Counted from the first letter of the stretch, positions 3,692-35,415 are shown. The stretch is DNA of 64,000 nt from Escherichia coli (GCF_050320075.1 NZ_CP190018.1), one strand, 5' to 3'. Notes: generated from the letters alone by a model not told the origin. Program-made: numbers and translations.

Positions 3692-4332
3692 TTGTCGGTG
3701 TACCTCTCTCGTTTGCTCAGTTGTTCAGGAATATGGTGCAGCAGCTCGCCGTCGCCGCAGTAAATTGCGGCGTGATTCGGCACCGATGAACCAAAACAGC
3801 ACAGCAGCACATCGCCCGGCTGTGCCGCTGACAACGGCACCTGATACAGCCCCGTCGCCTCCAGATTATCCAGATAGAGATTCTGGCCGTTACGCCACCA
3901 GTCATCCTCACGATGAAAGTCCGGCATCTCAATCCCCGCCAGATGATAAGCATCCCGGAACAGGGTGTAACAGTCCGTCACACCGTGCTCAAAGCGCCGC
4001 CCGGTAAGATGCGGCACACAGCGGAACTTATGAATCGTCCCCCGGCAGACCAGCCACCACGGCAAATCACTCTGCACCTGCAGCCGCCGGTCGGCCTCAC
4101 TCAGCCAGGGCAGACCACCGGGGTGGCTGTGGACCAGCGCCACAATCTCACCCTGCATTTCTGCCTGCAGCCAGTCTTCCGGCGACATACGGAAATACGC
4201 CTCCGGCTCACCGGAGATATTCACGCAGGGGAAATATCTTTCCCCCTCCGGCGTGCTTACCACGAAGCCGCACGACTCCGCTGGCGCACATCGCCGGGCG
4301 TGCGCCAGAATCGCTGATTCTGTCTGTGTCAT
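3589..4332 (-). CDS. K: Tail assembly protein K (JAB/MPN plus NlpC/P60-like); alternative start at 4188 would give the 199-aa lambda-annotated form
   Basis: ORF contains MTQTESAILAHARRCAPAESCGFVV and an HSHPGG JAMM-like motif; overlaps I by ~100 bp as in lambda. Confidence 0.88.
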   Translation of the reverse strand: MTQTESAILAHARRCAPAESCGFVVSTPEGERYFPCVNISGEPEAYFRMSPEDWLQAEMQGEIVALVHSHPGGLPWLSEADRRLQVQSDLPWWLVCRGTIHKFRCVPHLTGRRFEHGVTDCYTLFRDAYHLAGIEMPDFHREDDWWRNGQNLYLDNLEATGLYQVPLSAAQPGDVLLCCFGSSVPNHAAIYCGDGELLHHIPEQLSKRERYTDKWQRRTHSLWRHRAWRASAFTGIYNDLVAASTFV

Positions 4333-4336
4333 GGGA

Positions 4337-5035
4337 TTACTGCGAAAGTTTGTTAATGGAAAGGAAGCCGCCAAAGTTGCCGACGTTATTGCGAAACTTA
4401 CAGCCGCTCAGGCATTTGCTGCATTTATCCTTCGTGATATCGGACGTCGGCTGGTCATATTCATCCGCGACCGCCGGACCGTGATAACCGCACTCATCAC
4501 CGCGATAGGTCCAGGTGCAGGTATTAGCAAGCATGATGCGCCCCGGAAAAACAGCGCCGTCCGTTTCCGTCGGCGTGGACAGTACAAAGGAGGCACTGAC
4601 CGCGCTCAGTTCGCTGCACTGCTCAATACGCCAGCGGCTGATCACCTCCTGCTCCGGATCGGCGTCACTGTTTCCGTTGACGAAGTTCACCGCATCCAGA
4701 AAACGGGCGTAAACCTTACGCCTGACCACCGTTCCGCCGACCAGACTCTGCAGGTCTTCCGCCATCCCGGTGACCATACCGTACAGGTTAGAAACCGTCA
4801 GCGTGGGGCGCGTACTGGTGCCTTTGCCATTCAGTTCAAAACCGCTCCCCTGAATGGGATACGGCTGATACTGTCGCCCCTGCCAGGTGACCGGCTCACC
4901 TTTTTCGTTCTGCTCATTACAGAAAAAATAACGTTCTCCACCGACCTCTGTCAGGTCGATTTCCCAGAGCACCAAGCTGGCCGACTGCTCCGCACGGGTG
5001 CATTCATTCAGTGTTTCCTGCCGGATATCCTGCAT
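4337..5035 (-). CDS. L: Minor tail protein L
   Basis: 232-aa ORF MQDIRQETLNECTRAEQSAS... matches lambda gpL. Confidence 0.93.
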   Translation of the reverse strand: MQDIRQETLNECTRAEQSASLVLWEIDLTEVGGERYFFCNEQNEKGEPVTWQGRQYQPYPIQGSGFELNGKGTSTRPTLTVSNLYGMVTGMAEDLQSLVGGTVVRRKVYARFLDAVNFVNGNSDADPEQEVISRWRIEQCSELSAVSASFVLSTPTETDGAVFPGRIMLANTCTWTYRGDECGYHGPAVADEYDQPTSDITKDKCSKCLSGCKFRNNVGNFGGFLSINKLSQ

Positions 5036-5364
5036 CAGTTCACCACCTGTTCAAACTCTGCGCTGAACTCAACACGCAGCATACTGACCCGCGACGACCA
5101 TTTTGCGCAGGTCACCTTTATCTGCCGCCACTCATAAGGCGGCGTCCACAGAAAGGATTTCCAGCCCCCGTGCTCTTCCAGAAACGACTCCAGTACCATG
5201 GCCTCCTCACGGGGGACAGAAAGCGTCACGCTGTACGTTTTCAGGTTGGCATTCAGCCCGGCAGGCGCTCGCTGGGAATAGCCATCACCAAAGCGCACCT
5301 TTCTTACAGAAGGGGCCGAAGCCACATCCATACCGGGTTTCACTTTCCAGCGGAAGGTTTTCAT
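5035..5364 (-). CDS. M: Minor tail protein M
   Basis: 109-aa ORF MKTFRWKVKPGMDVASAPSVRKVRFGDGYSQ... matches lambda gpM. Confidence 0.93.
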   Translation of the reverse strand: MKTFRWKVKPGMDVASAPSVRKVRFGDGYSQRAPAGLNANLKTYSVTLSVPREEAMVLESFLEEHGGWKSFLWTPPYEWRQIKVTCAKWSSRVSMLRVEFSAEFEQVVN

Positions 5365-7940
5365 CGTCCACCTCCGGAGAACAGGCCACCATCACGCATC
5401 TGTGTCTGAATTTCATCACGGGCACCCTTGCGGGCCATGTCATACACCGCCTTCAGAGCAGCCGGACCTATCTGCCCGTTCGTGCCGTCGTTGTTAATCA
5501 CCACATGGTTATTCTGCTCAAACGTCCCGGACGCCTGCGACCGGCTGTCAGCCAGACTGCCCGGTGTACCGACATAACCACCGGTGGCATAGCCGCGCAT
5601 CAGCCGGTAGAGATTCCCCACGCCAATCCGGCTGGTTGCCTCCTTCGTGAAGACAAATTCACCACGGTGAACAATCCCCGCTGGCTCATATTTGCCGCCG
5701 GTTCCTGTGAATCCTCCGGTTGCAAAATGGAATTTCGCCGCAGCGGCCTGAATGGCTGTACCGCCTGACGCGGATGCGCCGCCACCAACAGCCCCGCCAA
5801 TGGCGCTGCCGATACTCCCGACAATCCCCACCATTGCCTGCTTAAGCAAAATTTCTGTCATCATGGACAGCACGGATCGGGTGAAGCTGCGCCAGTTCTG
5901 TTCACTGCCGGTCAGCATCGCCGCCATATTCTGTGCAATACCATCAAAGGTCTGCGTGGCTGCACTTTTAACCTGCGACATACTGTCCGTGGCGCTCTCT
6001 TCCCACTCACTCCAGCCGGACTTCAGGCCTGCCATCCAGTTCCCGCGAAGCTGGTCTTCAGCCGCCCAGGTCTTTTTCTGCTCTGACATGACGTTATTCA
6101 GCGCCAGCGGATTATCGCCATACTGTTCCTTCAGGCGCTGTTCCGTGGCTTCCCGTTCTGCCTGCCGGTCAGTCAGCCCCCGGCTTTTCGCATCAATGGC
6201 GGCCCGTTTTGCCCGTTGCTGCTGTGCGAATTTATCCGCCTGCTGCGCCAGCGCGTTCAGGCGCTCCTGATACGTAACCTTGTCGCCAAGTGCAGCCAGC
6301 TGGCGTTTGTACTCCAGCGTCTCATCTTTATGCGCCAGCAGGGATTTCTCCTGTGCAGACAGCTGGCGACGTTGCGCCGCCTCCTCCAGTACCGCGAACT
6401 GACTCTCCGCCTTCCACAAATCCCGGCGCTGCTGGCTGATTTTCTCATTTGCTCCGGCATGCTTCTCCAGCGTCCGGAGTTCTGCCTGAAGCGTCAGCAG
6501 GGCAGCATGAGCACTGTCTTCCTGACGATCGCCCGCAGACACCTTCACGCCGGACTGTTTCGGCTTTTTCAGCGTCGCTTCATAATCCTTTTTCGCCGCC
6601 GCCATCAGCGTGTTGTAATCCGCCTGCAGGATTTTCCCGTCTTTCAGTGCCTTGTTCAGTTCTTCCTGACGGGCGGTATATTTCTCCAGCGGCGTCTGCA
6701 GCCGTTCGTAAGCCTTCTGCGCCTCTTCGGTATATTTCAGCCGTGATGCCTCAGACTCGGCCCGATCTTTTGCTGCCATCTCACTGGCCTTTTCAAGATC
6801 TGCCTGCAACGTGGCGGCTGAAAGCCCAAGTCGCGCATTCTCTCTCTTCTCCCATGCCCCCCGGAGATTGGCAAGAAATGCTGACGTTTTACCGCGCCGG
6901 TGGCTTCGGCTCTGATACCACTGCCATTTTTTATCCGCTTCATCAAAAGCCTTTTCAGCTTTGGCGAGCATATCTGCAGAGGAGTCCGGGCGGCCAATAT
7001 CCAGCACCGCATCCCACATGGATTTGAATGCCTGTGCAGTCTTGTCTGCCCAGGTCTCCAGCGTACCCATGTTATCTTTCAGTTTACGGGTCTGGTCATC
7101 AAACCCTTTCGTTGCGGCCTCGTTCGCCGCCTGCAATGCCCCGGCCCCATCGCCGGAACGCTGCAACTGAGCAACATACGCAATCTGCTCCGCCGTCACG
7201 TTATGGAACTGGCGCGCCATCGCCGTCAGCCCCGACGTCGGGTCAGTGGTCAGCTTCCCGAAGGCTTCAGCGACCTTGTCCACCTCCACACCGGATGCAG
7301 AGGAGAAACGCGCCACACTCTGGCTGATTGCCTCAAACTGCTCACCACCACGCACACCGGCATTCACCAGCGCCGTCAGTGACTCGCTGGTCTGGTTAAA
7401 CGTCAGCCCTGCCGCCTGCCCGGATCTGGACAGGGCCAGCATACGATCTGCCGTCAGTCCCGCCTGATTACCGGAAAGGACCAGCGTTTTATTGAAATTG
7501 GACAGGGTTGAGTCACCCTGATACCAGGCATACGCCAGCGCACCGGTCGCCACCGCCAGCGAAGTGATACCAACCATCGGCAGGGTGATCGCACCGGCAA
7601 GCCCCCTGAACATGGGGATCATCCCGCCGAAGGAGTCCTTCACCTGACCACCCTGTTGCAGCAGGATGAGCCACGGATTCTGCCCCCCTGCAAGCTGCGT
7701 GGCCACGTCGGTGAACTGCGCAGGCAGCATACGCATGGCAGCTTTATACTGCCCGACGGAAATCCCCGCTTTCTGTGCAGCCAGCGCCTGCCGGTTTATT
7801 GACTGTTCAACGACTGCCGCTGTTTTTTTCGCATCACTTTCCGTACCGGAAAAATGACGCCTGACTCTGGCCATCTGCTCGTCAAATCTGGCCGCATCCA
7901 GACTTAAATCAACGACCAGATCGCCTACCGGTTCAGCCAT
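5361..7940 (-). CDS. H: Tail tape measure protein H
   Basis: 859-aa ORF MAEPVGDLVVDLSLDAARFDEQMARVRRHF... with coiled-coil middle and Gly-rich C-terminus, as in lambda gpH. Confidence 0.93.
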   Translation of the reverse strand: MAEPVGDLVVDLSLDAARFDEQMARVRRHFSGTESDAKKTAAVVEQSINRQALAAQKAGISVGQYKAAMRMLPAQFTDVATQLAGGQNPWLILLQQGGQVKDSFGGMIPMFRGLAGAITLPMVGITSLAVATGALAYAWYQGDSTLSNFNKTLVLSGNQAGLTADRMLALSRSGQAAGLTFNQTSESLTALVNAGVRGGEQFEAISQSVARFSSASGVEVDKVAEAFGKLTTDPTSGLTAMARQFHNVTAEQIAYVAQLQRSGDGAGALQAANEAATKGFDDQTRKLKDNMGTLETWADKTAQAFKSMWDAVLDIGRPDSSADMLAKAEKAFDEADKKWQWYQSRSHRRGKTSAFLANLRGAWEKRENARLGLSAATLQADLEKASEMAAKDRAESEASRLKYTEEAQKAYERLQTPLEKYTARQEELNKALKDGKILQADYNTLMAAAKKDYEATLKKPKQSGVKVSAGDRQEDSAHAALLTLQAELRTLEKHAGANEKISQQRRDLWKAESQFAVLEEAAQRRQLSAQEKSLLAHKDETLEYKRQLAALGDKVTYQERLNALAQQADKFAQQQRAKRAAIDAKSRGLTDRQAEREATEQRLKEQYGDNPLALNNVMSEQKKTWAAEDQLRGNWMAGLKSGWSEWEESATDSMSQVKSAATQTFDGIAQNMAAMLTGSEQNWRSFTRSVLSMMTEILLKQAMVGIVGSIGSAIGGAVGGGASASGGTAIQAAAAKFHFATGGFTGTGGKYEPAGIVHRGEFVFTKEATSRIGVGNLYRLMRGYATGGYVGTPGSLADSRSQASGTFEQNNHVVINNDGTNGQIGPAALKAVYDMARKGARDEIQTQMRDGGLFSGGGR

Positions 7941-22121: not shown

Positions 22122-23081
22122 TTAATTTACCATCAGTCTTAGAGCCAGTTCGTCCGGATAGGGATCGAAGTAATTCTGTGTAAGCAAGTAATCATTAGGA
22201 TACTCACCCAGATAATGCTTCAGCAGAGTCAACGGCGCAAGAAGAGGTAATGTGCCAGAACGATAGTTAAGTATAACCTCGCTCAACTCTTTACGCTGGC
22301 GTGTACTTAAGTAGTTACTAAAATACCCCTGTATATGCATCATCACATTCGTGTGATTTTTACGTGATGCAGGTTTTCTGAGAATCGCCATCAGCTTATC
22401 ACGATACACCTCAAAGTATGATTCAAGGTCCGCCCACTCGTGTATTGCAGCCACAAATGGTCCCATATCTTTATAGCCTGCCTGACTATGCGCCAACAAC
22501 TGAAGCTTATAACGACTATGAAAAGCTAATAACTCTCTTCTTGATAATTTCTCCTTGTAAAGGTGATTGAGCTCATGCAAAGCAAAAACTCTTTCAACAA
22601 AATTCTCACGAAGCACTGGATCATGTAATCGCCCATCCTCTTCAACCGGTAGCCAGGAAAACTTTTCCATCAAAGTGCTCGTAAATAGTCCCACTCCATC
22701 TTTACGACCTCGATTACCATTTTCATCATAGACACGCACGCGCTCCATGCCACAGCTGGGAGATTTAGCACAAACCACAAACCCCGATACATCCTTTAAT
22801 TTGTCCATATAAGAACGACTAAACTCTGTCATTCTCTCTGTCACATCCTCATTCTGGTCGTGGCTGAAACACATCCGTATATTTCCTTGCGTCGAGCGCA
22901 CAAGACGTAGAGCAGGACGCGGAACTGGCAGCCCTATAGCCATTTCCGGACATACTGGTCTGAATGTTACCCATTCCACTAATTTGTCCATTAAAAAGTC
23001 AGCTCTTTTGTGACCACCATCAAAACGAACAGCAGAACCGGCCAGACAACCGCTGATTCCAATCACAGGTTTTTTTATCAT
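22122..23081 (-). CDS. DUF523/DUF1722 (YbgA-like) family protein, Cys-rich N-terminal half (prophage cargo)
   Basis: 319-aa ORF MIKKPVIGISGCLAGSAVRFDGGHKRADFLMDKLVEWVTFRPVCPEMAIGLPVPRPALRL... resembles YbgA-type DUF523-DUF1722 proteins. Confidence 0.7.
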   Translation of the reverse strand: MIKKPVIGISGCLAGSAVRFDGGHKRADFLMDKLVEWVTFRPVCPEMAIGLPVPRPALRLVRSTQGNIRMCFSHDQNEDVTERMTEFSRSYMDKLKDVSGFVVCAKSPSCGMERVRVYDENGNRGRKDGVGLFTSTLMEKFSWLPVEEDGRLHDPVLRENFVERVFALHELNHLYKEKLSRRELLAFHSRYKLQLLAHSQAGYKDMGPFVAAIHEWADLESYFEVYRDKLMAILRKPASRKNHTNVMMHIQGYFSNYLSTRQRKELSEVILNYRSGTLPLLAPLTLLKHYLGEYPNDYLLTQNYFDPYPDELALRLMVN

Positions 23082-23273
23082 ATCCTCCCCCTTGACTAAT
23101 TCATTAACACATAAACTGTGTAGTGCACGGAATAAATTGCCTTTCTGGCGTCATCACTGACAATTTTTCTGTTATGGACTATTCCTAATATAGTATGAAA
23201 GTTCTTTAAGTGATCGGTCGTAATCATCTATCTTTCATACTTACTCTCAACTATCAAAAGTACAGGATTTATT

Positions 23274-23798
23274 ATGAAGTTATGGCCTGTGTTGACTGGC
23301 ATTGCACTCTCTTTCACTCTTATAGCATGTAAGGCCCCGACACCACCTAAAGGTGTGCAGCCGATTACAAATTTTGACGCCAACCGCTACCTCGGAAAGT
23401 GGTATGAAATAGCTCGCCTCGAGAACCGGTTCGAACGTGGTCTGGAACAGGTCAGCGCTACTTATGGAAAACGGAACGACGGAGGGATTCGTGTACTTAA
23501 CCGTGGATACGATCCAACGAAAAATAAATGGAGCGAGAGCGAAGGTAAAGCATACTTTACTGGAGATACTAAAACTGCAGCGTTGAAGGTTTCGTTTTTT
23601 GGCCCCTTCTATGGTGGCTATAATGTAATCAAACTGGATGATGAGTATAAGTATGCTCTTGTCAGTGGTCCGAACAGAGAATACCTATGGATTCTGGCAA
23701 GGACCCCAACTATTCCAGATAAAGTAAAAGCAGACTATGTGCGAACCGCTCAAAAGTTGGGATTCAATGTCAATGAATTATTATGGGTTAAACAATAA
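23274..23798 (+). CDS. Bacterial lipocalin (Blc-like outer-membrane lipoprotein) paralog (prophage cargo)
   Basis: 174-aa ORF with lipobox LIAC and NFDANRYLGKWYEIARLENRFERGLEQVSATYG...KVSFFGPFYGGYNVIKLDDEYKYALVSGPNREYLWILARTPT, closely resembling E. coli Blc. Confidence 0.85.
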   Translation: MKLWPVLTGIALSFTLIACKAPTPPKGVQPITNFDANRYLGKWYEIARLENRFERGLEQVSATYGKRNDGGIRVLNRGYDPTKNKWSESEGKAYFTGDTKTAALKVSFFGPFYGGYNVIKLDDEYKYALVSGPNREYLWILARTPTIPDKVKADYVRTAQKLGFNVNELLWVKQ

Positions 23799-23865: not shown

Positions 23866-24575
23866 CGCCTATAAGGCTCTCTTACCAGCCGCGCCCTAAC
23901 AGGCGCACACGATCTGACATTTGCATCCAACTTCGTTACTTACGGCCCGTAAACGGGCTGCCCGGATAGGGAATCGATAACTGCTCTCCCATTTTATCCT
24001 CTTCAAGCTGGTGCTTTATGTAGTCCTGTATCTTCGCCGTGTTCTTACCCACCGTATCGACATAGTACCCTCGGCACCAGAACTCCCTGTTTCTGTATTT
24101 GAATTTCAAATCCCCAAACTGCTCGTAAAGCATCAGACTGCTTTTCCCTTTCAGATATCCCATAAAGCCGGATACGCTCATTTTGGGTGGGATTTCCACA
24201 AGCATATGGATATGATCTGCGCAGCACTCTGCTTCCAGAATCCGTACGCTTTTCCACTCACACAGCTTTCTCAAAATACTGCCTATCGCCCTACGCTTCT
24301 CTCCGTAAAACGCCAGTCTTCGGTATTTCGGCGCAAAAACTATGTGATATTTACAGTTCCAGCGGGTGTGCACTAAGCTCTTTTCGTCCCCCATTGGGAC
24401 CCCCTTTTGATTTCTTGTTTGACACTTGCAGTTGCCAGACCGCAAGGTGTTTTAACAAATCAAAAGGGGTTTTAATAACTGGCTCAAAGCTGAAAGCTTT
24501 CCGGAACCCCCAGCCTAGCTGGGGGTTTTCTGTGCACAAAAAAACCAGCCTTTGGGGAGGCTGGCTAAATCAGGA
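23866..24575 (-). mobile_element. IS200 insertion sequence (boundaries approximate)
   Basis: Contains the IS200 TnpA gene plus end hairpins (GGCCCGTAAACGGGC near 23945; CCCCCAGCCTAGCTGGGGG and CCAGCCTTTGGGGAGGCTGG near 24500..24570). Confidence 0.8.
23936..24394 (-). CDS. tnpA: IS200/IS605-family Y1 (HUH) transposase TnpA
   Basis: MGDEKSLVHTRWNCKYHIVFAPKYRRLAFYGEKRRAIGSILRKLCEWKSVRILEAECCADHIHMLVEIPP... matches IS200 TnpA (152 aa). Confidence 0.93.
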   Translation of the reverse strand: MGDEKSLVHTRWNCKYHIVFAPKYRRLAFYGEKRRAIGSILRKLCEWKSVRILEAECCADHIHMLVEIPPKMSVSGFMGYLKGKSSLMLYEQFGDLKFKYRNREFWCRGYYVDTVGKNTAKIQDYIKHQLEEDKMGEQLSIPYPGSPFTGRK

Positions 24576-25914: not shown

Positions 25915-26077
25915 GATTCCTCCTTGCTGCCAGTCGCAACCATTTTTTATCAACCAGGCTGGCGGTATATCCGAGCAGTGTTGGTATTTCGGATGGTTTC
26001 AGCTCAGGCCTACGCTTACGACGATTTGGTACTTTGTAGATGTGTCCGTTCATGACACGAATAAGCGGTGTAGCCAT
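25907..26077 (-). CDS. NinE-family small protein
   Basis: Hand-translated 56-aa [59 protein letters not shown], overlapping the ybcO-like start (ATGGCTGA); position between ninB and ybcO. Confidence 0.6.
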   Translation of the reverse strand: MATPLIRVMNGHIYKVPNRRKRRPELKPSEIPTLLGYTASLVDKKWLRLAARRNHG

Positions 26078-26532
26078 TACGCCTCCTGCTTATCACGCAG
26101 CAGCTGGAACTCGCAGCTCTGCGGAATAGTCAGGTGGCAGCCAATATTCATCGCCCAGGCTTCAACCTTACACAGGAAGACATACATCTCTCCGGTATCA
26201 AGGTCGGAGGTATGGCGTAACGACTGGATAGTGGTGATATCACCGGTTACGACATCAACCAGGTCTTTGGTTTCATAACCGAGATATGTGTGTTTGAGAG
26301 CATCTTTTACCCAAGCTGGAGTGGCGAACGTTTTACCCCTGCTGATGAGGTATTCACTGATTTCGCTGTACCACATGTGGCTGAGTGCATTCTGGGAAAG
26401 ACTGCGTCTCTCGCGCCACGGTTTAAGCACCATGCGAAAGCATTTGCCGTCCTCCAGATAAGGCTGGATCTGCCGACCGATAGCGGTGAAGTTACCGCGA
26501 TGTAATTTGATGCCATCTTGTGGGAGGTTCAC
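26077..26532 (-). CDS. ninB: Recombination protein NinB
   Basis: 151-aa [61 protein letters not shown]... resembles NinB family proteins. Confidence 0.85.
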
Positions 26533-26726
26533 GCTTCACCTCCGCAGAGGTCAAACGTTGGATGCAAAGAATCGCAGGTGCATTTCTGCATCTGTGAAGA
26601 GAGAAGAGAGTTTAGATTGTATGTGCGCATAAACGTCCCCGTTTAGCGCAGAAGTCACCGGAGTTGTTCAGGCTCCAATGGCATGATTATGGCTGGTTGA
26701 TTATTGGAAATCAAATGTGCTGAAAA

Positions 26727-27236
26727 TTAGTCTGCCAAGTCTTCCTCAGTCGCAACTGGGTAATTCCAAATATCAAAAAAAGCTATAGCCTCCTGCCATT
26801 TGCTCCATAAGTTATCAAGTACTTGTGTAGGTTCCGTACTTTTAAAAACAGAATCAGCCGCATCACCGTTATGAACTTCCTCGTACAGTTCCATTATTAG
26901 CAGATTAACAAAGTACTGTTTCAACATTAATGCCTGATTACCTTCTTTCTGCTGGCTATCCTGCTTGATGATCTCCATCGCCCGTACTAGGCACCTGATG
27001 ATATCCGCTGCATCATTAACGCTCCATTCAGATCCGCGCTTATCTTTAGCTGATGAATTGGCTCTCTCAGCGCAAGCCTTTAAAGACTCATAAAGGTAAA
27101 CTCTATTTTGTAGCTGCAGCGCTTTTTTTGACGTGTACCAACTTGCAAGCGCCGACCCCGCTGCGGCTAATGTGCCAAACGCAGAAATACCTGCTGCTAT
27201 TGCACTTAAGTCGGCACTGTCAAAGTTCCACATCAT
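26727..27236 (-). CDS. Hypothetical protein with one N-terminal transmembrane segment (prophage cargo, unknown function)
   Basis: 169-aa ORF MMWNFDSADLSAIAAGISAFGTLAAAGSALASWYTSKK... then a hydrophilic acidic tail; low GC; no family recognised. Confidence 0.55.
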   Translation of the reverse strand: MMWNFDSADLSAIAAGISAFGTLAAAGSALASWYTSKKALQLQNRVYLYESLKACAERANSSAKDKRGSEWSVNDAADIIRCLVRAMEIIKQDSQQKEGNQALMLKQYFVNLLIMELYEEVHNGDAADSVFKSTEPTQVLDNLWSKWQEAIAFFDIWNYPVATEEDLAD

Positions 27237-27905
27237 CGTTACACCTTATATAAATACCCCTCAGTAATATCCAATAAGGTATGTGCACAATCAATATAAT
27301 TTTATCCGTATCGGCACATAGCGATTTGAAGGCTACTGGTAATAGTATATTTTAGATTATATCGTCCAGTTTACAGCACCCGTATTTTATGAAATGGACT
27401 CGCATATTACCCAAAAAATGCCAGCACTTCCGTCATCGTAGAATGCTGGCAGTATTTCTAACTAGTGACTTTATTGGAACAGATTCTGACGGAAATATGG
27501 TAACACTCGACTCCACTTATCATCCAGCCACGGCTGGAATTTTACATGTGCCGTTTATCTGGCGAGGATTGCTCGCGCTCTGTTGAGTATCTGGGGATAT
27601 TCATGCTCGATAGAAGTAAAGCGGCCGGCTTCGCGGTGCTCCGCAACCTGAAGTAGTGGAGTAACGTTCTGGCAGGCAGTTAACATCACATCACCTGCTC
27701 GCCATAACCAAGCACGTGCACAAAGTTTGTTATCAGTGAATTGTTTTGTGATTGGGTATTGTTGAACTGCTAGAACGAGAACGCCAGCATCCATTGGCAG
27801 TCCCTATAGTAAAACCATAGCTCAGGACGCTTCGTTCAGGATAGATAATTTTATTGTACTTACCTAACTTTCTTACTATAGCACGGTTGAAAAAGTGATT
27901 ATTAC

Positions 27906-29432
27906 TCAAAAATAAACCTCACCATCAACCATATATTTGAGAGTACTTATCGCCTGCTGGGCGGATATTATTTTCATTAAAGGATAGTGTTTAAAAACAA
28001 TGCCATTCATAAAATAGATATCACAGGTTTTATTATCTGTATTGATTATGATTTTTTCGAATGTTTTATAGGCAAGTGTACGACATAGCTCTCGCCCATT
28101 TTTACTGGTTAAGTCAATAGCATGAAAATCACCAAGTGAACTCACCGCTTTACTCTTCAAAGTTTTTAATGATACAGAAGCCCTTCGTAATTCCTTATCT
28201 AATACTCTGATTTTTTCTGCTATAGCGGTAACTTCAGGCGCAACAGATAATGCAGCAATTAAATTATTAATTTTCATCTGGAGCTCAATAATTTTCAACT
28301 CTAAAGTTTCATTAGCATCTTTCTTGTTTTCAACTGGTTGGATTTTACTACAATTAAAAAGCAACTCATTAATGATATTATAATCAACCAAATCTCTCTT
28401 TATTGATGGCCTGTCACATCGATGCAGTCTTCTCATCGGACAAACATAATAGCCATGCAAACTTCCAGATACCGCATGAACAATCATGGTATTACCACAA
28501 GCCTCGCACTTCATAACTGTTCGAAGTAGATTTATCAACATAGGATTTTTGCTACTATTGCTAATACCAAAAGGTGCCAACCGAATTTCCTGCACAGCGT
28601 AAAACAAATCATCTGATATGACTCTGGGATAATAGCCAGCGATTTCACTTATTCCTTTACCTCTTGCACGATATGAAGGTACGCATATACCTATCAGAGC
28701 TTTATTCGCTAATAATTTTTCAATTACAGAAGGTCCCCATGCACTTTCTTTTCCTGAGAAATTCTTTACAGCATGATCATTTAAATACTTGGCTATTGCA
28801 TTCAATGAGCGCCTTTCCATCCTGAGTTTAAAAATTAGCTCAATAGTTTTCACCCTGTCGGGGTCTGGAACAAAAGCCGTTCTTTTGTCATCCAATGAGA
28901 GCCATCTCGGACAAGACGCCGTCATAATCGTGCCTGACTCCAGTGCATCCTGCCGTTTTTTCTTCCATGATAATTTAACCCGACTTGACTTTATCTCGCT
29001 TTCTTCATTTGCCCTTTGTGCTATAAGTATGGCTTTTATTAATGAATATGGCTCATTCAATGAGTCAATATTATAGACTGTATTATCGCAAAGAGTTATA
29101 ACATCAATACCGTGATTCAAAATCAATTTCAGACGCTCAATCGCTTCACCGACTTTTTCTCTTGAAAGTCTGTCCAGACTTTCAACTAACAATGTAGTCC
29201 CTGGCAATATATAACCATGTTCTATAGCATCTAAAAATTCCGAAAAAGCTCCTGATTGTGCATGCTTTCCATTGAATGCGCTTAACCCCAAATCTTCATA
29301 CGTTACGGTATCAAGGTAATAATCACTATTTACCTTTAGCCATTCAGTAATAAGCCTTCTCTGGCGGTTTAATGAATCACCAGACATCTGACCTGGTGAT
29401 GAAAATCGCATATATGCTATGGCTTTTTTCAT
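27906..29432 (-). CDS. Large serine recombinase (resolvase/invertase catalytic domain plus recombinase and Cys-rich zinc-ribbon-like domains), DLP12 YbcK type
   Basis: 508-aa ORF MKKAIAYMRFSSPGQMSGDSLNRQRRLITEWL... (catalytic Ser in RFSSPGQ) with downstream CEACGN...CPMRRLHRCDRP cysteine cluster; low GC. Confidence 0.85.
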   Translation of the reverse strand: MKKAIAYMRFSSPGQMSGDSLNRQRRLITEWLKVNSDYYLDTVTYEDLGLSAFNGKHAQSGAFSEFLDAIEHGYILPGTTLLVESLDRLSREKVGEAIERLKLILNHGIDVITLCDNTVYNIDSLNEPYSLIKAILIAQRANEESEIKSSRVKLSWKKKRQDALESGTIMTASCPRWLSLDDKRTAFVPDPDRVKTIELIFKLRMERRSLNAIAKYLNDHAVKNFSGKESAWGPSVIEKLLANKALIGICVPSYRARGKGISEIAGYYPRVISDDLFYAVQEIRLAPFGISNSSKNPMLINLLRTVMKCEACGNTMIVHAVSGSLHGYYVCPMRRLHRCDRPSIKRDLVDYNIINELLFNCSKIQPVENKKDANETLELKIIELQMKINNLIAALSVAPEVTAIAEKIRVLDKELRRASVSLKTLKSKAVSSLGDFHAIDLTSKNGRELCRTLAYKTFEKIIINTDNKTCDIYFMNGIVFKHYPLMKIISAQQAISTLKYMVDGEVYF

Positions 29433-33807: not shown

Positions 33808-35415
33808 ATGGATATGTCAAAAAAAATTTTTGAATTCAAAAATTACCCAATAGTCTTTATTGGCTCAGGCATTTCAAAAAGATATTTAGAGAACTACCCA
33901 ACGTGGGAAGAGCTATTAAACGAGTATTGGAAAATAACAAATCCCACAAATGATTTCTATAGTTATCTTTTAACAATAAAAGAATCACATAAAAATAACA
34001 GTGATAATGATATCGATCATAAGATTTATACAGAGGCAGCAAGTAAAATTGAAAATGATTACAATCTATTGTTTAGGACTGGCAAATTAAAATTAAATGG
34101 ACTAGATGCCAAGAGGGTTTTTAGTGAAGATATTTCACCATTTAAATACGCCATATGCCAAAGATTTTCTAATAACACAATCAGAAAGGATGTAAATCTT
34201 GATGAATTAGCATCATTTAAAACATTAATAAAAAAGGCCAAGATAATCATCACTACAAATTATGATGCTTTCATAGAAAATTTACTTCAAGAGCAAAATG
34301 TAACTCCAAAACTCTATATTGGAAATAATGGTTTTTTCGAAGATACTATTGGCTGGAGTGAGTTATACAAAATACATGGTGATATAAAGGATCCACACTC
34401 AATAATCATAAATAAAGATGATTACGAAAAATATGACAACAAATCTATACTCATTAGTGCCAAGATACTATCTAACATGATTAAAAATCCAATAGTTTTT
34501 CTTGGATATTCTTTAACTGACAGGAATGTAAAGAAACTTCTTTCTGATTTTTCCTCACAACTACCTAGAGAAGATGGTCGAAAATCAGCTGAAAGAATAA
34601 TTTTGATTGAATATAAAGAGAATGAACAGGAAGTAGTACCAAAACAGATTACCGATCAACAGCTACAAATTACATATACATCTGTTAAAACAGATAACTA
34701 TAAACAGATCTATGATGAGATCAGTGCTGTTGATGAAGGGCTCTCACCTTATGATGTTTTAAGGTATCAAAGAGCCATTAAAACACTTATCATTAATGAG
34801 GGTGAAAAAGGGCACTTAGATACTCTATTGGTTTCACCTTCTGACTTAGACAGACTTGAAGAAAGTGTTAAACAAGGAAAAAATTTAGTTGTTGCTCTAG
34901 GCGATAAAAAGTATGTATTCACACAAGTTAAAGAAATAAATTATCTTGAAGACTACTTATTTAATAAAAATGAAATATCTAATAAATTAGCTATAGATTT
35001 CATATTAGGTTCAGTAAACTCATTACAACTTCCATTTTCAAAAACTATAACCTCATGTAATTTGAAAGAGTTAAGTTTGCCAGCTAAATATGTGTTAAAA
35101 CTAAATCAACGCATTGAACGCCACGGAAAACTAGACGACTTGCTCAATAAAATCACCTTAGATAAAATCAATGCAAATAAAATTTACACCAACATCAAAG
35201 ATATAAAGGATGCAAAGTTCAAAAAGTACAAAGAATTGTCTATAGTCATTAAGAACATAAAAAATATCCCCAAAGAGGAGATTGAAGATTATGTTAAAAA
35301 AGAAGCGTTTGTTCAATTCAAGGCATGCGACGTTGACAATTTAAAAACCCAGTATAGGAAACTATTTCTTGCCTACGACTTGTTGATTCATGGAAATGTT
35401 GAAAAGATAAATTAA
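33808..35415 (+). CDS. SIR2-like (sirtuin-family, SIR2_2-type) domain protein with uncharacterised C-terminal half; candidate single-gene anti-phage defence protein in the rexAB-equivalent position
   Basis: 535-aa ORF, about 28-30% GC; motifs FIGSGISK (res 17-24), IIITTNYD (N151), YKIHGD (H190), IVFLGYSLTD (229-238) with Asn-His spacing of 39 as in defence-associated SIR2 domains; directly downstream and co-oriented with the repressor. Confidence 0.7.
   Translation: MDMSKKIFEFKNYPIVFIGSGISKRYLENYPTWEELLNEYWKITNPTNDFYSYLLTIKESHKNNSDNDIDHKIYTEAASKIENDYNLLFRTGKLKLNGLDAKRVFSEDISPFKYAICQRFSNNTIRKDVNLDELASFKTLIKKAKIIITTNYDAFIENLLQEQNVTPKLYIGNNGFFEDTIGWSELYKIHGDIKDPHSIIINKDDYEKYDNKSILISAKILSNMIKNPIVFLGYSLTDRNVKKLLSDFSSQLPREDGRKSAERIILIEYKENEQEVVPKQITDQQLQITYTSVKTDNYKQIYDEISAVDEGLSPYDVLRYQRAIKTLIINEGEKGHLDTLLVSPSDLDRLEESVKQGKNLVVALGDKKYVFTQVKEINYLEDYLFNKNEISNKLAIDFILGSVNSLQLPFSKTITSCNLKELSLPAKYVLKLNQRIERHGKLDDLLNKITLDKINANKIYTNIKDIKDAKFKKYKELSIVIKNIKNIPKEEIEDYVKKEAFVQFKACDVDNLKTQYRKLFLAYDLLIHGNVEKIN

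Follow-up and report, generated by a model that had tools for sequence, protein, structure and literature searches.

A candidate moron of lambda-like Escherichia coli prophages encoding a predicted membrane-tethered protein of the phrog_1779 family

Described systems and the phrog_1779 family

Lambdoid phages carry morons, such as HK97 gp15 and lambda bor and lom, single extra genes that separate two genes lying side by side in related phages. We analyzed a gene of this appearance in a 64,000-nucleotide stretch of an Escherichia coli genome (NZ_CP190018.1, assembly GCF_050320075.1), hereafter called the window. The gene, ORF169, is an open reading frame (ORF) of 169 codons with an ATG start, at positions 26727..27236 (stop codon included) on the minus strand. 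An initial annotation, made from the sequence alone, had presented it as an orphan membrane-anchored protein that might protect the lysogen. The best-supported account, drawn from sequence comparison and structure prediction, is that ORF169 is an accessory gene of moron type in lambda-like temperate phages, whose product would be non-enzymatic, membrane-tethered and cytoplasm-facing.

ORF169 shares with morons its placement between genes that are neighbors in related phages, as well as a deviant GC content and a conserved promoter-like element of its own. The GC content of the ORF is 43.9%, compared with 49.9% for the window and 50 to 53% for the adjacent nin genes; the description "low-GC" therefore holds, for a modest difference. 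A terminator directly follows the gene in many of its relatives, but is absent from the window copy. Moreover, the protein has no sequence or fold similarity to any characterized moron product, and the promoter is a predicted one. HK97 gp15, like the ORF169 product, is a small predicted inner-membrane protein, and belongs with P22 SieA and T4 Imm and Sp to the superinfection-exclusion proteins of the membrane, which, like the ORF169 product, are small, start with a hydrophobic segment and are encoded in prophages or among early genes. However, no homology to any of them was detected, and the folded domain of the ORF169 protein is predicted to be cytoplasmic.

A further comparison concerns the SLATT-type effectors with two transmembrane helices, which occur in retron and defense-associated reverse transcriptase (DRT) systems and in cyclic oligonucleotide-based antiphage signaling systems (CBASS). 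The ORF169 family shares with these a helix rich in small residues, after which come a basic stretch and cytoplasmic helices, and three relatives gave sub-threshold matches to SLATT_1 of NCBIfam (12 to 16 bits, the best being 15.6 against a cut-off of 41), with one match to the RTasSLATT family of PADLOC. SLATT effectors, however, have two helices and a nucleotide-signaling or reverse-transcriptase partner, whereas the ORF169 family has one helix and no constant partner. We rejected membership, given that the scores lie below the cut-off, that hhalign against a SLATT_5 protein returned a probability of 0.1%, and that Pfam found no SLATT domain in P0042, a longer relative discussed below. The similarity is treated as compositional. 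UniProt also labels three of the relatives found by Foldseek as 'DUF4760 domain-containing protein'. The Pfam family DUF4760 comprises proteins of about 150 to 175 residues with an N-terminal membrane helix and a helical domain, resembling ORF169 in size and architecture. Membership of DUF4760 (PF15956) was rejected as well: no match was obtained at E ≤ 10 for the query or at E ≤ 0.1 for 30 diverse family members, and the database relatives carry no Pfam tag. DUF4760 is itself uncharacterized.

The family to which ORF169 belongs is phrog_1779 of the PHROG database. The protein matches its hidden Markov model over the full length (E = 1.2e-102, 342 bits, residues 1-169 on positions 1-169 of the 169-position profile), and the distant relatives found in this analysis match it too. 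Since PHROG gives the function of phrog_1779 as unknown, membership carries no annotation and hence no mechanism. Elsewhere, Pfam gave no match for the query even at E ≤ 10, and nothing for the 30 members at E ≤ 0.001; NCBIfam gave no match for the query and only noise for the relatives. The earlier statement that the protein matches no nameable family thus stands for Pfam, NCBIfam and PADLOC, but not for PHROG. Likewise, the sensitive profile searches and structure prediction that had been proposed as a check led to phrog_1779, but to no relative of known function.

The word "orphan" is no longer tenable. Clustering at 90% identity among 5.8 billion proteins gave 15 family clusters, and a profile search of 1.84 billion proteins gave 35 representatives at 50% identity. 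The gene was found in 179 to 206 of 5,426 complete E. coli genomes, with at least 99% identity in 167 of the 206 genomes that have a copy. Only three sequenced phage isolates carry it, PhiR26_1, PhiR5_1 and Erwinia phage vB_EhrS_49. It is also present on phage-plasmids of about 93 to 98 kb that encode phd-doc and a late promoter-activating protein, and that are P1-like by gene content. All recovered contexts are a temperate phage, a phage-plasmid or a small integrative element, and no chromosomal non-phage copy was found among the family loci recovered. phrog_1779 is thus a small family whose members all reside in temperate phages, phage-plasmids or satellites of Enterobacterales.

The annotation had placed the ORF correctly, without giving the strand, and its product is known in RefSeq genomes as WP_000990013.1, 'hypothetical protein'. 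A Shine-Dalgarno sequence, AAGGTG (27242..27247, minus strand), lies 5 nt 5' of the ATG, and a GAGG or AAGG version of it is also present in diverged loci. Codon-level comparison with diverged homologues, using pairs with unsaturated synonymous divergence, gave a ratio of non-synonymous to synonymous substitution rates (dN/dS) of 0.09 to 0.16, and ORF169 is therefore a genuine protein-coding gene under purifying selection. The same values bear on whether the gene could be a silent passenger in this prophage, left there by recombination and with no current function. The cassette that contains ORF169 is indeed a recombination product, in which the adjacent gene, encoding Rha, has been cut in half; the near-identity of most E. 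coli copies leaves little information on selection within this species; and one copy, at locus L057, is frameshifted. Against this, purifying selection is seen family-wide, only about 1 in 42 copies in IMG/VR is disrupted, and the window copy retains an intact ORF, Shine-Dalgarno sequence and promoter element. We therefore regard a passenger status as improbable.

Predicted membrane anchor, topology and helical domain

Codons 10-32 of ORF169 (27141..27209, minus strand) encode a conserved, marginally hydrophobic helix rich in Ala, Gly and Ser, predicted from Kyte-Doolittle hydropathy and flank charges to be an N-out/C-in anchor. The hydrophobic peptide first named in the annotation, AIAAGISAFGTLAAAGSALASW, is present in the translated N-terminus, and an N-terminal hydrophobic segment is kept in all members of an alignment of 30 diverse family proteins, which is the alignment used throughout this section. 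The single N-terminal helix is therefore present and conserved, but its hydrophobicity is only marginal, with a best 19-residue Kyte-Doolittle mean of 1.59, for a usual threshold of 1.6 and a family median of 1.84. Ala, Gly, Ser and Thr make up 74% of the helix, the family median being 63%.

The residues flanking the helix are net negative on the N side and net positive on the C side in 28 of the 30 members. By the positive-inside rule, this predicts an N-out/C-in topology, with the folded domain in the cytoplasm. The small residues within the helix recur every 3 to 4 positions (S18, A24, A29 and the invariant S32), a spacing characteristic of membrane helices that pack tightly or associate with one another; this small-residue face hints that the protein self-associates within the membrane.

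A helix of this composition also calls to mind the signal-anchor-release (SAR) domains, which have a similar content of small residues and a similarly weak hydrophobicity. ORF169 could then be a component of lysis timing, of SAR or antiholin-like type, whose helix would be able to exit the membrane. We consider this most improbable. SAR proteins have the opposite topology, with a periplasmic cargo domain; the gene is never found in the lysis cassette, which sits after Q, several kb away; and in one relative the helix is fused into a polytopic membrane protein. The predicted topology and the gene position led us to reject a SAR or antiholin identity.

The relative in question, P0042, is a protein of 288 residues (locus L007, 6001-6867), in which the family helix is the last of about four hydrophobic segments. 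Its gene has no internal Met codon able to yield a shorter product, and Pfam recognized no domain in the extension that holds the three or so extra hydrophobic segments. This architecture supports a genuine membrane location of the family, as judged from the predicted segments.

The rest of the protein is predicted to be entirely helical. Two AlphaFold2 models were obtained, with mean predicted local distance difference test (pLDDT) scores of 71 and 84. The better one, built with the 30-sequence alignment, shows one long helix from residue 7 to residue 63, followed by an all-helical bundle, so that the hydrophobic segment and the bundle are joined within a continuous helix. The isoelectric point is 4.6 for the whole protein and 4.75 without the N-terminus, in agreement with the acidic domain that had been noticed after the helix.

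The only invariant residue of the alignment is S32; no His, Cys, Asp, Glu or Lys is invariant. Given this lack of invariant residues of catalytic type, an enzymatic role is unlikely, and the protein most likely works through binding. Other positions are conserved (Q43, L52, A56, N60, W71, A86, I90, F109, L113 and W147), as are the motifs AxRAN, (D/E)W-x-F and PPD. The protein ends with an acidic tail, T-E/D-E-D-L-x-D, encoded by codons 163-169 (26730..26750, minus strand). Its residues T163, E165, D166, L167 and D169 are invariant in close homologues, and a tail of D-x-D-L-x-D type is found in about two thirds of the 30 members. By its sequence, the DEDLxD tail looks like a docking or autoinhibitory peptide.

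Gene order, upstream block and terminators

The relatives of ORF169 occupy three kinds of position. On the pR side, they lie between the replication genes (P or ren) and ninB or Q (loci L002 to L007, L019, L022 and L059 to L066). On the pL side, they lie among cIII, kil, recT or erf, ssb, Ea22, DUF551 and xis or int genes (L010 and L014 to L017). In L009, the gene follows one for a DNA polymerase III theta-like (HOT-like) protein, in a small integrase-bearing element. This L009 element also contains an Ogr/Delta gene, and a pair formed of a reverse transcriptase and a SLATT_5 protein, of the retron or DRT defense type, is found within or beside it (4031-5931), about 2 kb from the family member.

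The upstream neighbor varies: it is Rha in E. coli, and elsewhere a DUF551, HNH-like, Ea22-like or D12 methylase gene. There is therefore no constant partner gene. The candidate of an obligatory Rha-ORF169 pair was examined and rejected: Rha adjoins the gene in E. coli only, and a hairpin resembling a terminator separates the two.

What does accompany the gene is a short upstream block. Six lineages that have unrelated upstream genes, and whose proteins are 57 to 75% identical, share about 65 nt of conserved sequence 5' of the start codon; conservation ends beyond this point. The gene thus moves as a module that includes these nucleotides. The block contains a sigma-70-like element (27266..27294, minus strand), with a -35 hexamer TTGATT (27294-27289), a 17-nt spacer and a -10 hexamer GATATT (27271-27266). 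Across the lineages, the first hexamer reads TTGATT or TTGCTT, the 17-nt spacer and GATATT are invariant, and an A/T-rich stretch precedes them. We infer from this conservation, rather than from its strength, that the block is a weak sigma-70 promoter.

An inverted repeat found by pattern search, ATACC-N19-GGTAT (27254..27282, minus strand), surrounds the -10 hexamer. It is conserved in relatives, where it is longer; in L060, for instance, it reads AATACCCTGA-N12-TCAGGGTATT and folds at -20.9 kcal/mol (z-score -5.4); in the window, the folding z-score of the region is just -1.5. The repeat could be an operator or, alternatively, an RNA hairpin of read-through transcripts. We know of no regulator that would bind it at 27254-27282. 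The window sequence also allows an alternative RNA fold, in which ACCUUAU pairs weakly with the Shine-Dalgarno region (z-score -1.5).

Terminators are the other element of the arrangement. Upstream, between the Rha remnant and the promoter element, folding revealed a hairpin similar to an intrinsic terminator, GCCAGCA...TGCTGGC followed by T6 (27413..27450, minus strand; -20.3 kcal/mol, z-score -3.0), which is also present after the intact Rha gene of PhiR26_1 and PhiR5_1. Downstream, canonical intrinsic terminators lie no more than about 50 nt past the stop codon in eight lineages (L009, L010, L014/15, L017, L059/60, L062 and L063). Their sequences differ among lineages, and therefore it is the feature that is conserved, not the sequence. 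Promoter, gene, terminator, deviant composition and variable neighbors together make up the anatomy of a moron, an arrangement that favors, as far as sequence can tell, a transcription of the gene separate from that of the early operon.

These features have to be weighed against an alternative, namely that ORF169 is an early lytic accessory gene, involved in host take-over or anti-defense, whose product would be made with the delayed-early proteins and would target, at the membrane, a host factor or a membrane-bound defense effector of the host, with no protection of the lysogen. The gene is co-directional with the surrounding early operon in all contexts, on the pR as on the pL side. The L009 copy overlaps the stop codon of the polymerase III theta gene, and the L022 copy starts 35 nt after DUF551, both of which suggest operon membership. 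Small acidic early proteins are also a typical format of anti-defense proteins. However, the promoter-like block accompanies the gene whatever its upstream neighbor, intrinsic terminators stand directly behind it in eight lineages, and a hairpin of terminator type stands right before the promoter element in the window, all of which would be needless for a simple operon member; moreover, the gene is kept intact in defective prophages. We view this alternative as the main rival, hardly less likely than the protective role favored below.

A second conserved segment is found downstream of ORF169. A backbone of about 185 nt between the ORF stop codon and ybcN/ninB (26532-26714 in the window, minus strand) is conserved even in the DLP12 prophage of K-12 (L013, 8285-8472), as well as in L004, L005, L022 and L060. 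It contains a sigma-70-like sequence, TTGATT-N17-CATAAT, at 26714-26686, followed by three hairpins: the first has an invariant 9-nt loop, CCUGAACAM, on a covarying stem, the second a GGGA loop, also on a covarying stem, and the third is formed by AUGCAGAAAU...AUUCUUUGCAU. Lying upstream of ninB, this backbone may specify a small RNA, or else a regulatory or terminator RNA. Rfam gave no match in the window interval 26300-27950.

The cassette in its prophage and the possible function of its product

Over the 1.3 kb around ORF169, the window shares 100% identity with two complete genomes and 99.6% identity with strain 55989 and the O104:H4 outbreak lineage. According to the RefSeq annotation of the identical region, the host element is a lambda-like prophage adjoining ybhC. 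Its gene order is int, xis, exo, bet, gam, kil, a SIR2 gene, cI, cro and YdaT, followed by O, P, ren, emrE, ybcK, a 'P22AR C-terminal domain' pseudogene and ORF169, then by a 33-codon ylcH-like ORF, ybcN (NinB), ninE, ybcO, rusA, ylcG and Q, and finally, after Q, by cargo, lysis and head genes. ORF169 is on the strand of the pR early operon. On that strand, ybcN/NinB (26077-26532) lies downstream of it; the serine recombinase gene ybcK (27906-29432) lies upstream. The initial placement between the nin region and the serine recombinase is borne out by these flanks, but it missed the Rha/P22AR pseudogene lying in between.

Comparison with K-12 by BLASTN (NC_000913, DLP12) delimits the cassette. 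Homology with DLP12 ends at 27867 and resumes at 26715, the backbone being about 94 to 96% identical on either side, and therefore window positions 26716..27866 (minus strand) replace ybcL-ybcM of K-12, as had been proposed. Besides ORF169, this cassette holds a remnant of Rha, or P22 antirepressor C-terminal domain, at about 27471..27794 (minus strand), which RefSeq reports as a pseudogene with an internal stop. The remnant is 5'-truncated and covers just residues 147-249 of intact Rha; homology of this region to the phages begins at 27781. Among the 39 E. coli loci, an intact Rha gene precedes ORF169 in 24, and ybcK followed by truncated Rha in the other 15, which include the window.

In PhiR26_1, 89 bp of the pre-ninB backbone (L002 4653-4741, corresponding to window 26562-26650) are duplicated upstream of Rha, and the Rha-ORF169 pair thus lies between direct repeats. 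These repeats suggest a cassette exchange by recombination at the duplicated pre-ninB element. Directly after Q, where K-12 DLP12 has nmpC, the prophage of the window harbors an IS200-type transposase ORF together with genes for a lipocalin (Blc-like) and a YbgA-family protein (23936-24445 and 22122-23798); in strain YZLc1-3, an IS66 element splits the IS200 copy.

Such cargo raises the question of whether ORF169 could benefit the lysogen in a way other than defense, within some particular niche, as a membrane-tethered modulator of host processes like envelope stress, transport or division. The moron anatomy would be the same, and non-defense cargo is found nearby, namely emrE and ybcL/ybcM in DLP12, and lipocalin and ybgA after Q in the prophage studied here. 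Nevertheless, the family occurs in phages, phage-plasmids and satellites only, and Pfam and NCBIfam searches found no similarity to host regulators. We judge such a conversion factor to be distinctly unlikely.

Defense genes are also present in the neighborhood. At the position of lambda rexAB, next to cI, the prophage encodes a SIR2-family protein of 535 residues (window 33808-35415, plus strand), which gives a full-length match (E = 6e-236) to the PADLOC candidate defense model PDC-S25, with weaker matches to ThsA-like SIR2 proteins. In PhiR26_1, the ren-ninB interval contains a known defense gene: PD-lambda-1 lies between ren and Rha and directly precedes the Rha-ORF169 pair.

Phage exclusion or abortive infection, as the annotation had also proposed, appears to us the most likely lysogen-benefiting function, a preference that is tentative and short of an even chance. 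It is favored because of the autonomous anatomy of the unit, because ORF169 has remained intact where the adjacent Rha gene has decayed and, in 55989, where the prophage itself is defective (terminase and rusA being frameshifted), because the ren-ninB interval is shared with PD-lambda-1 in PhiR26_1, and because the same prophage carries the PDC-S25 SIR2 gene beside cI. In such a scheme, the gene's own promoter, the terminator preceding it in the window and those found behind it in other lineages would permit its expression from a repressed prophage, independently of the pR or pL operons. The Ala/Gly/Ser-rich helix would enter the inner membrane, leaving the short acidic N-terminus outside, while the acidic helical bundle of about 135 residues would face the cytoplasm. 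From the cytoplasmic side of the inner membrane, the protein would then protect the lysogen against other phages, either by exclusion, if it blocks an inner-membrane step of infection, or by abortive infection, if sensing of the infection leads to oligomerization and depolarization of the membrane. A bolder version, which we hold to be unlikely as a whole, would make phrog_1779 a new single-gene anti-phage system, in which a cytoplasmic sensor bundle mounted on a marginally hydrophobic, small-residue-zipper helix oligomerizes upon infection and depolarizes the membrane, or plugs an inner-membrane route of DNA entry from inside, and in which a regulator bound to the conserved AATACCCTG...CAGGGTATT palindrome over the -10 gates expression.

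Several observations weigh against a protective role exerted from the membrane of the lysogen. Being co-directional with early genes in every context, the gene is probably expressed during lytic growth too. Its promoter element matches the consensus at 8 of 12 positions, which is under the threshold of the promoter scan, and is missing in L022 and L062. No terminator is found directly 3' of the gene in the window, L004, L005 and L022, where the conserved pre-ninB backbone starts 12 to 15 nt past the stop codon (12 nt in the window). The helix itself appears marginal for membrane insertion, with a simple Hessa-scale sum of +2.7 kcal/mol (family median +1.3), and a cytoplasm-facing domain, if correctly predicted, fits poorly with the classical blockers of DNA injection, which have periplasmic domains. 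Database searches point in the same direction. In PADLOC-DB v2, zero families matched the query at E ≤ 1, the relatives giving scattered scores of 12 to 16 bits; the sequence profile search of the PDB gave no usable match (best E 1.3); Foldseek against AFDB50 recovered members of the family and nothing else; no resemblance to a solved or predicted structure of known function emerged; no homology of the ORF169 protein to known exclusion or abortive-infection proteins was found; and a literature search on WP_000990013.1, PhiR26_1, PhiR5_1, the PHROG identifier, PF15956 and DUF4760 yielded nothing useful.

As matters stand, ORF169 is one among many uncharacterized cargo genes of prophages and will not surprise phage biologists: the family is already catalogued as phrog_1779, yet unstudied, and small membrane proteins encoded by prophage morons are of a well-known kind. 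If phage exclusion is confirmed, the gene would represent a compact, single-protein defense of lambda-like E. coli prophages, including those of O104:H4 and the 55989 lineage, and would offer an experimentally accessible example of an exclusion factor that is tethered to the membrane, faces the cytoplasm and has a regulated promoter to itself. Should it turn out to be an early lytic accessory or anti-defense gene, it would point to a host target located at the membrane. Either way, phrog_1779 offers a defined module, made of a promoter, a gene and a tail motif, together with two cultivable phages that carry it, PhiR26_1 and PhiR5_1.

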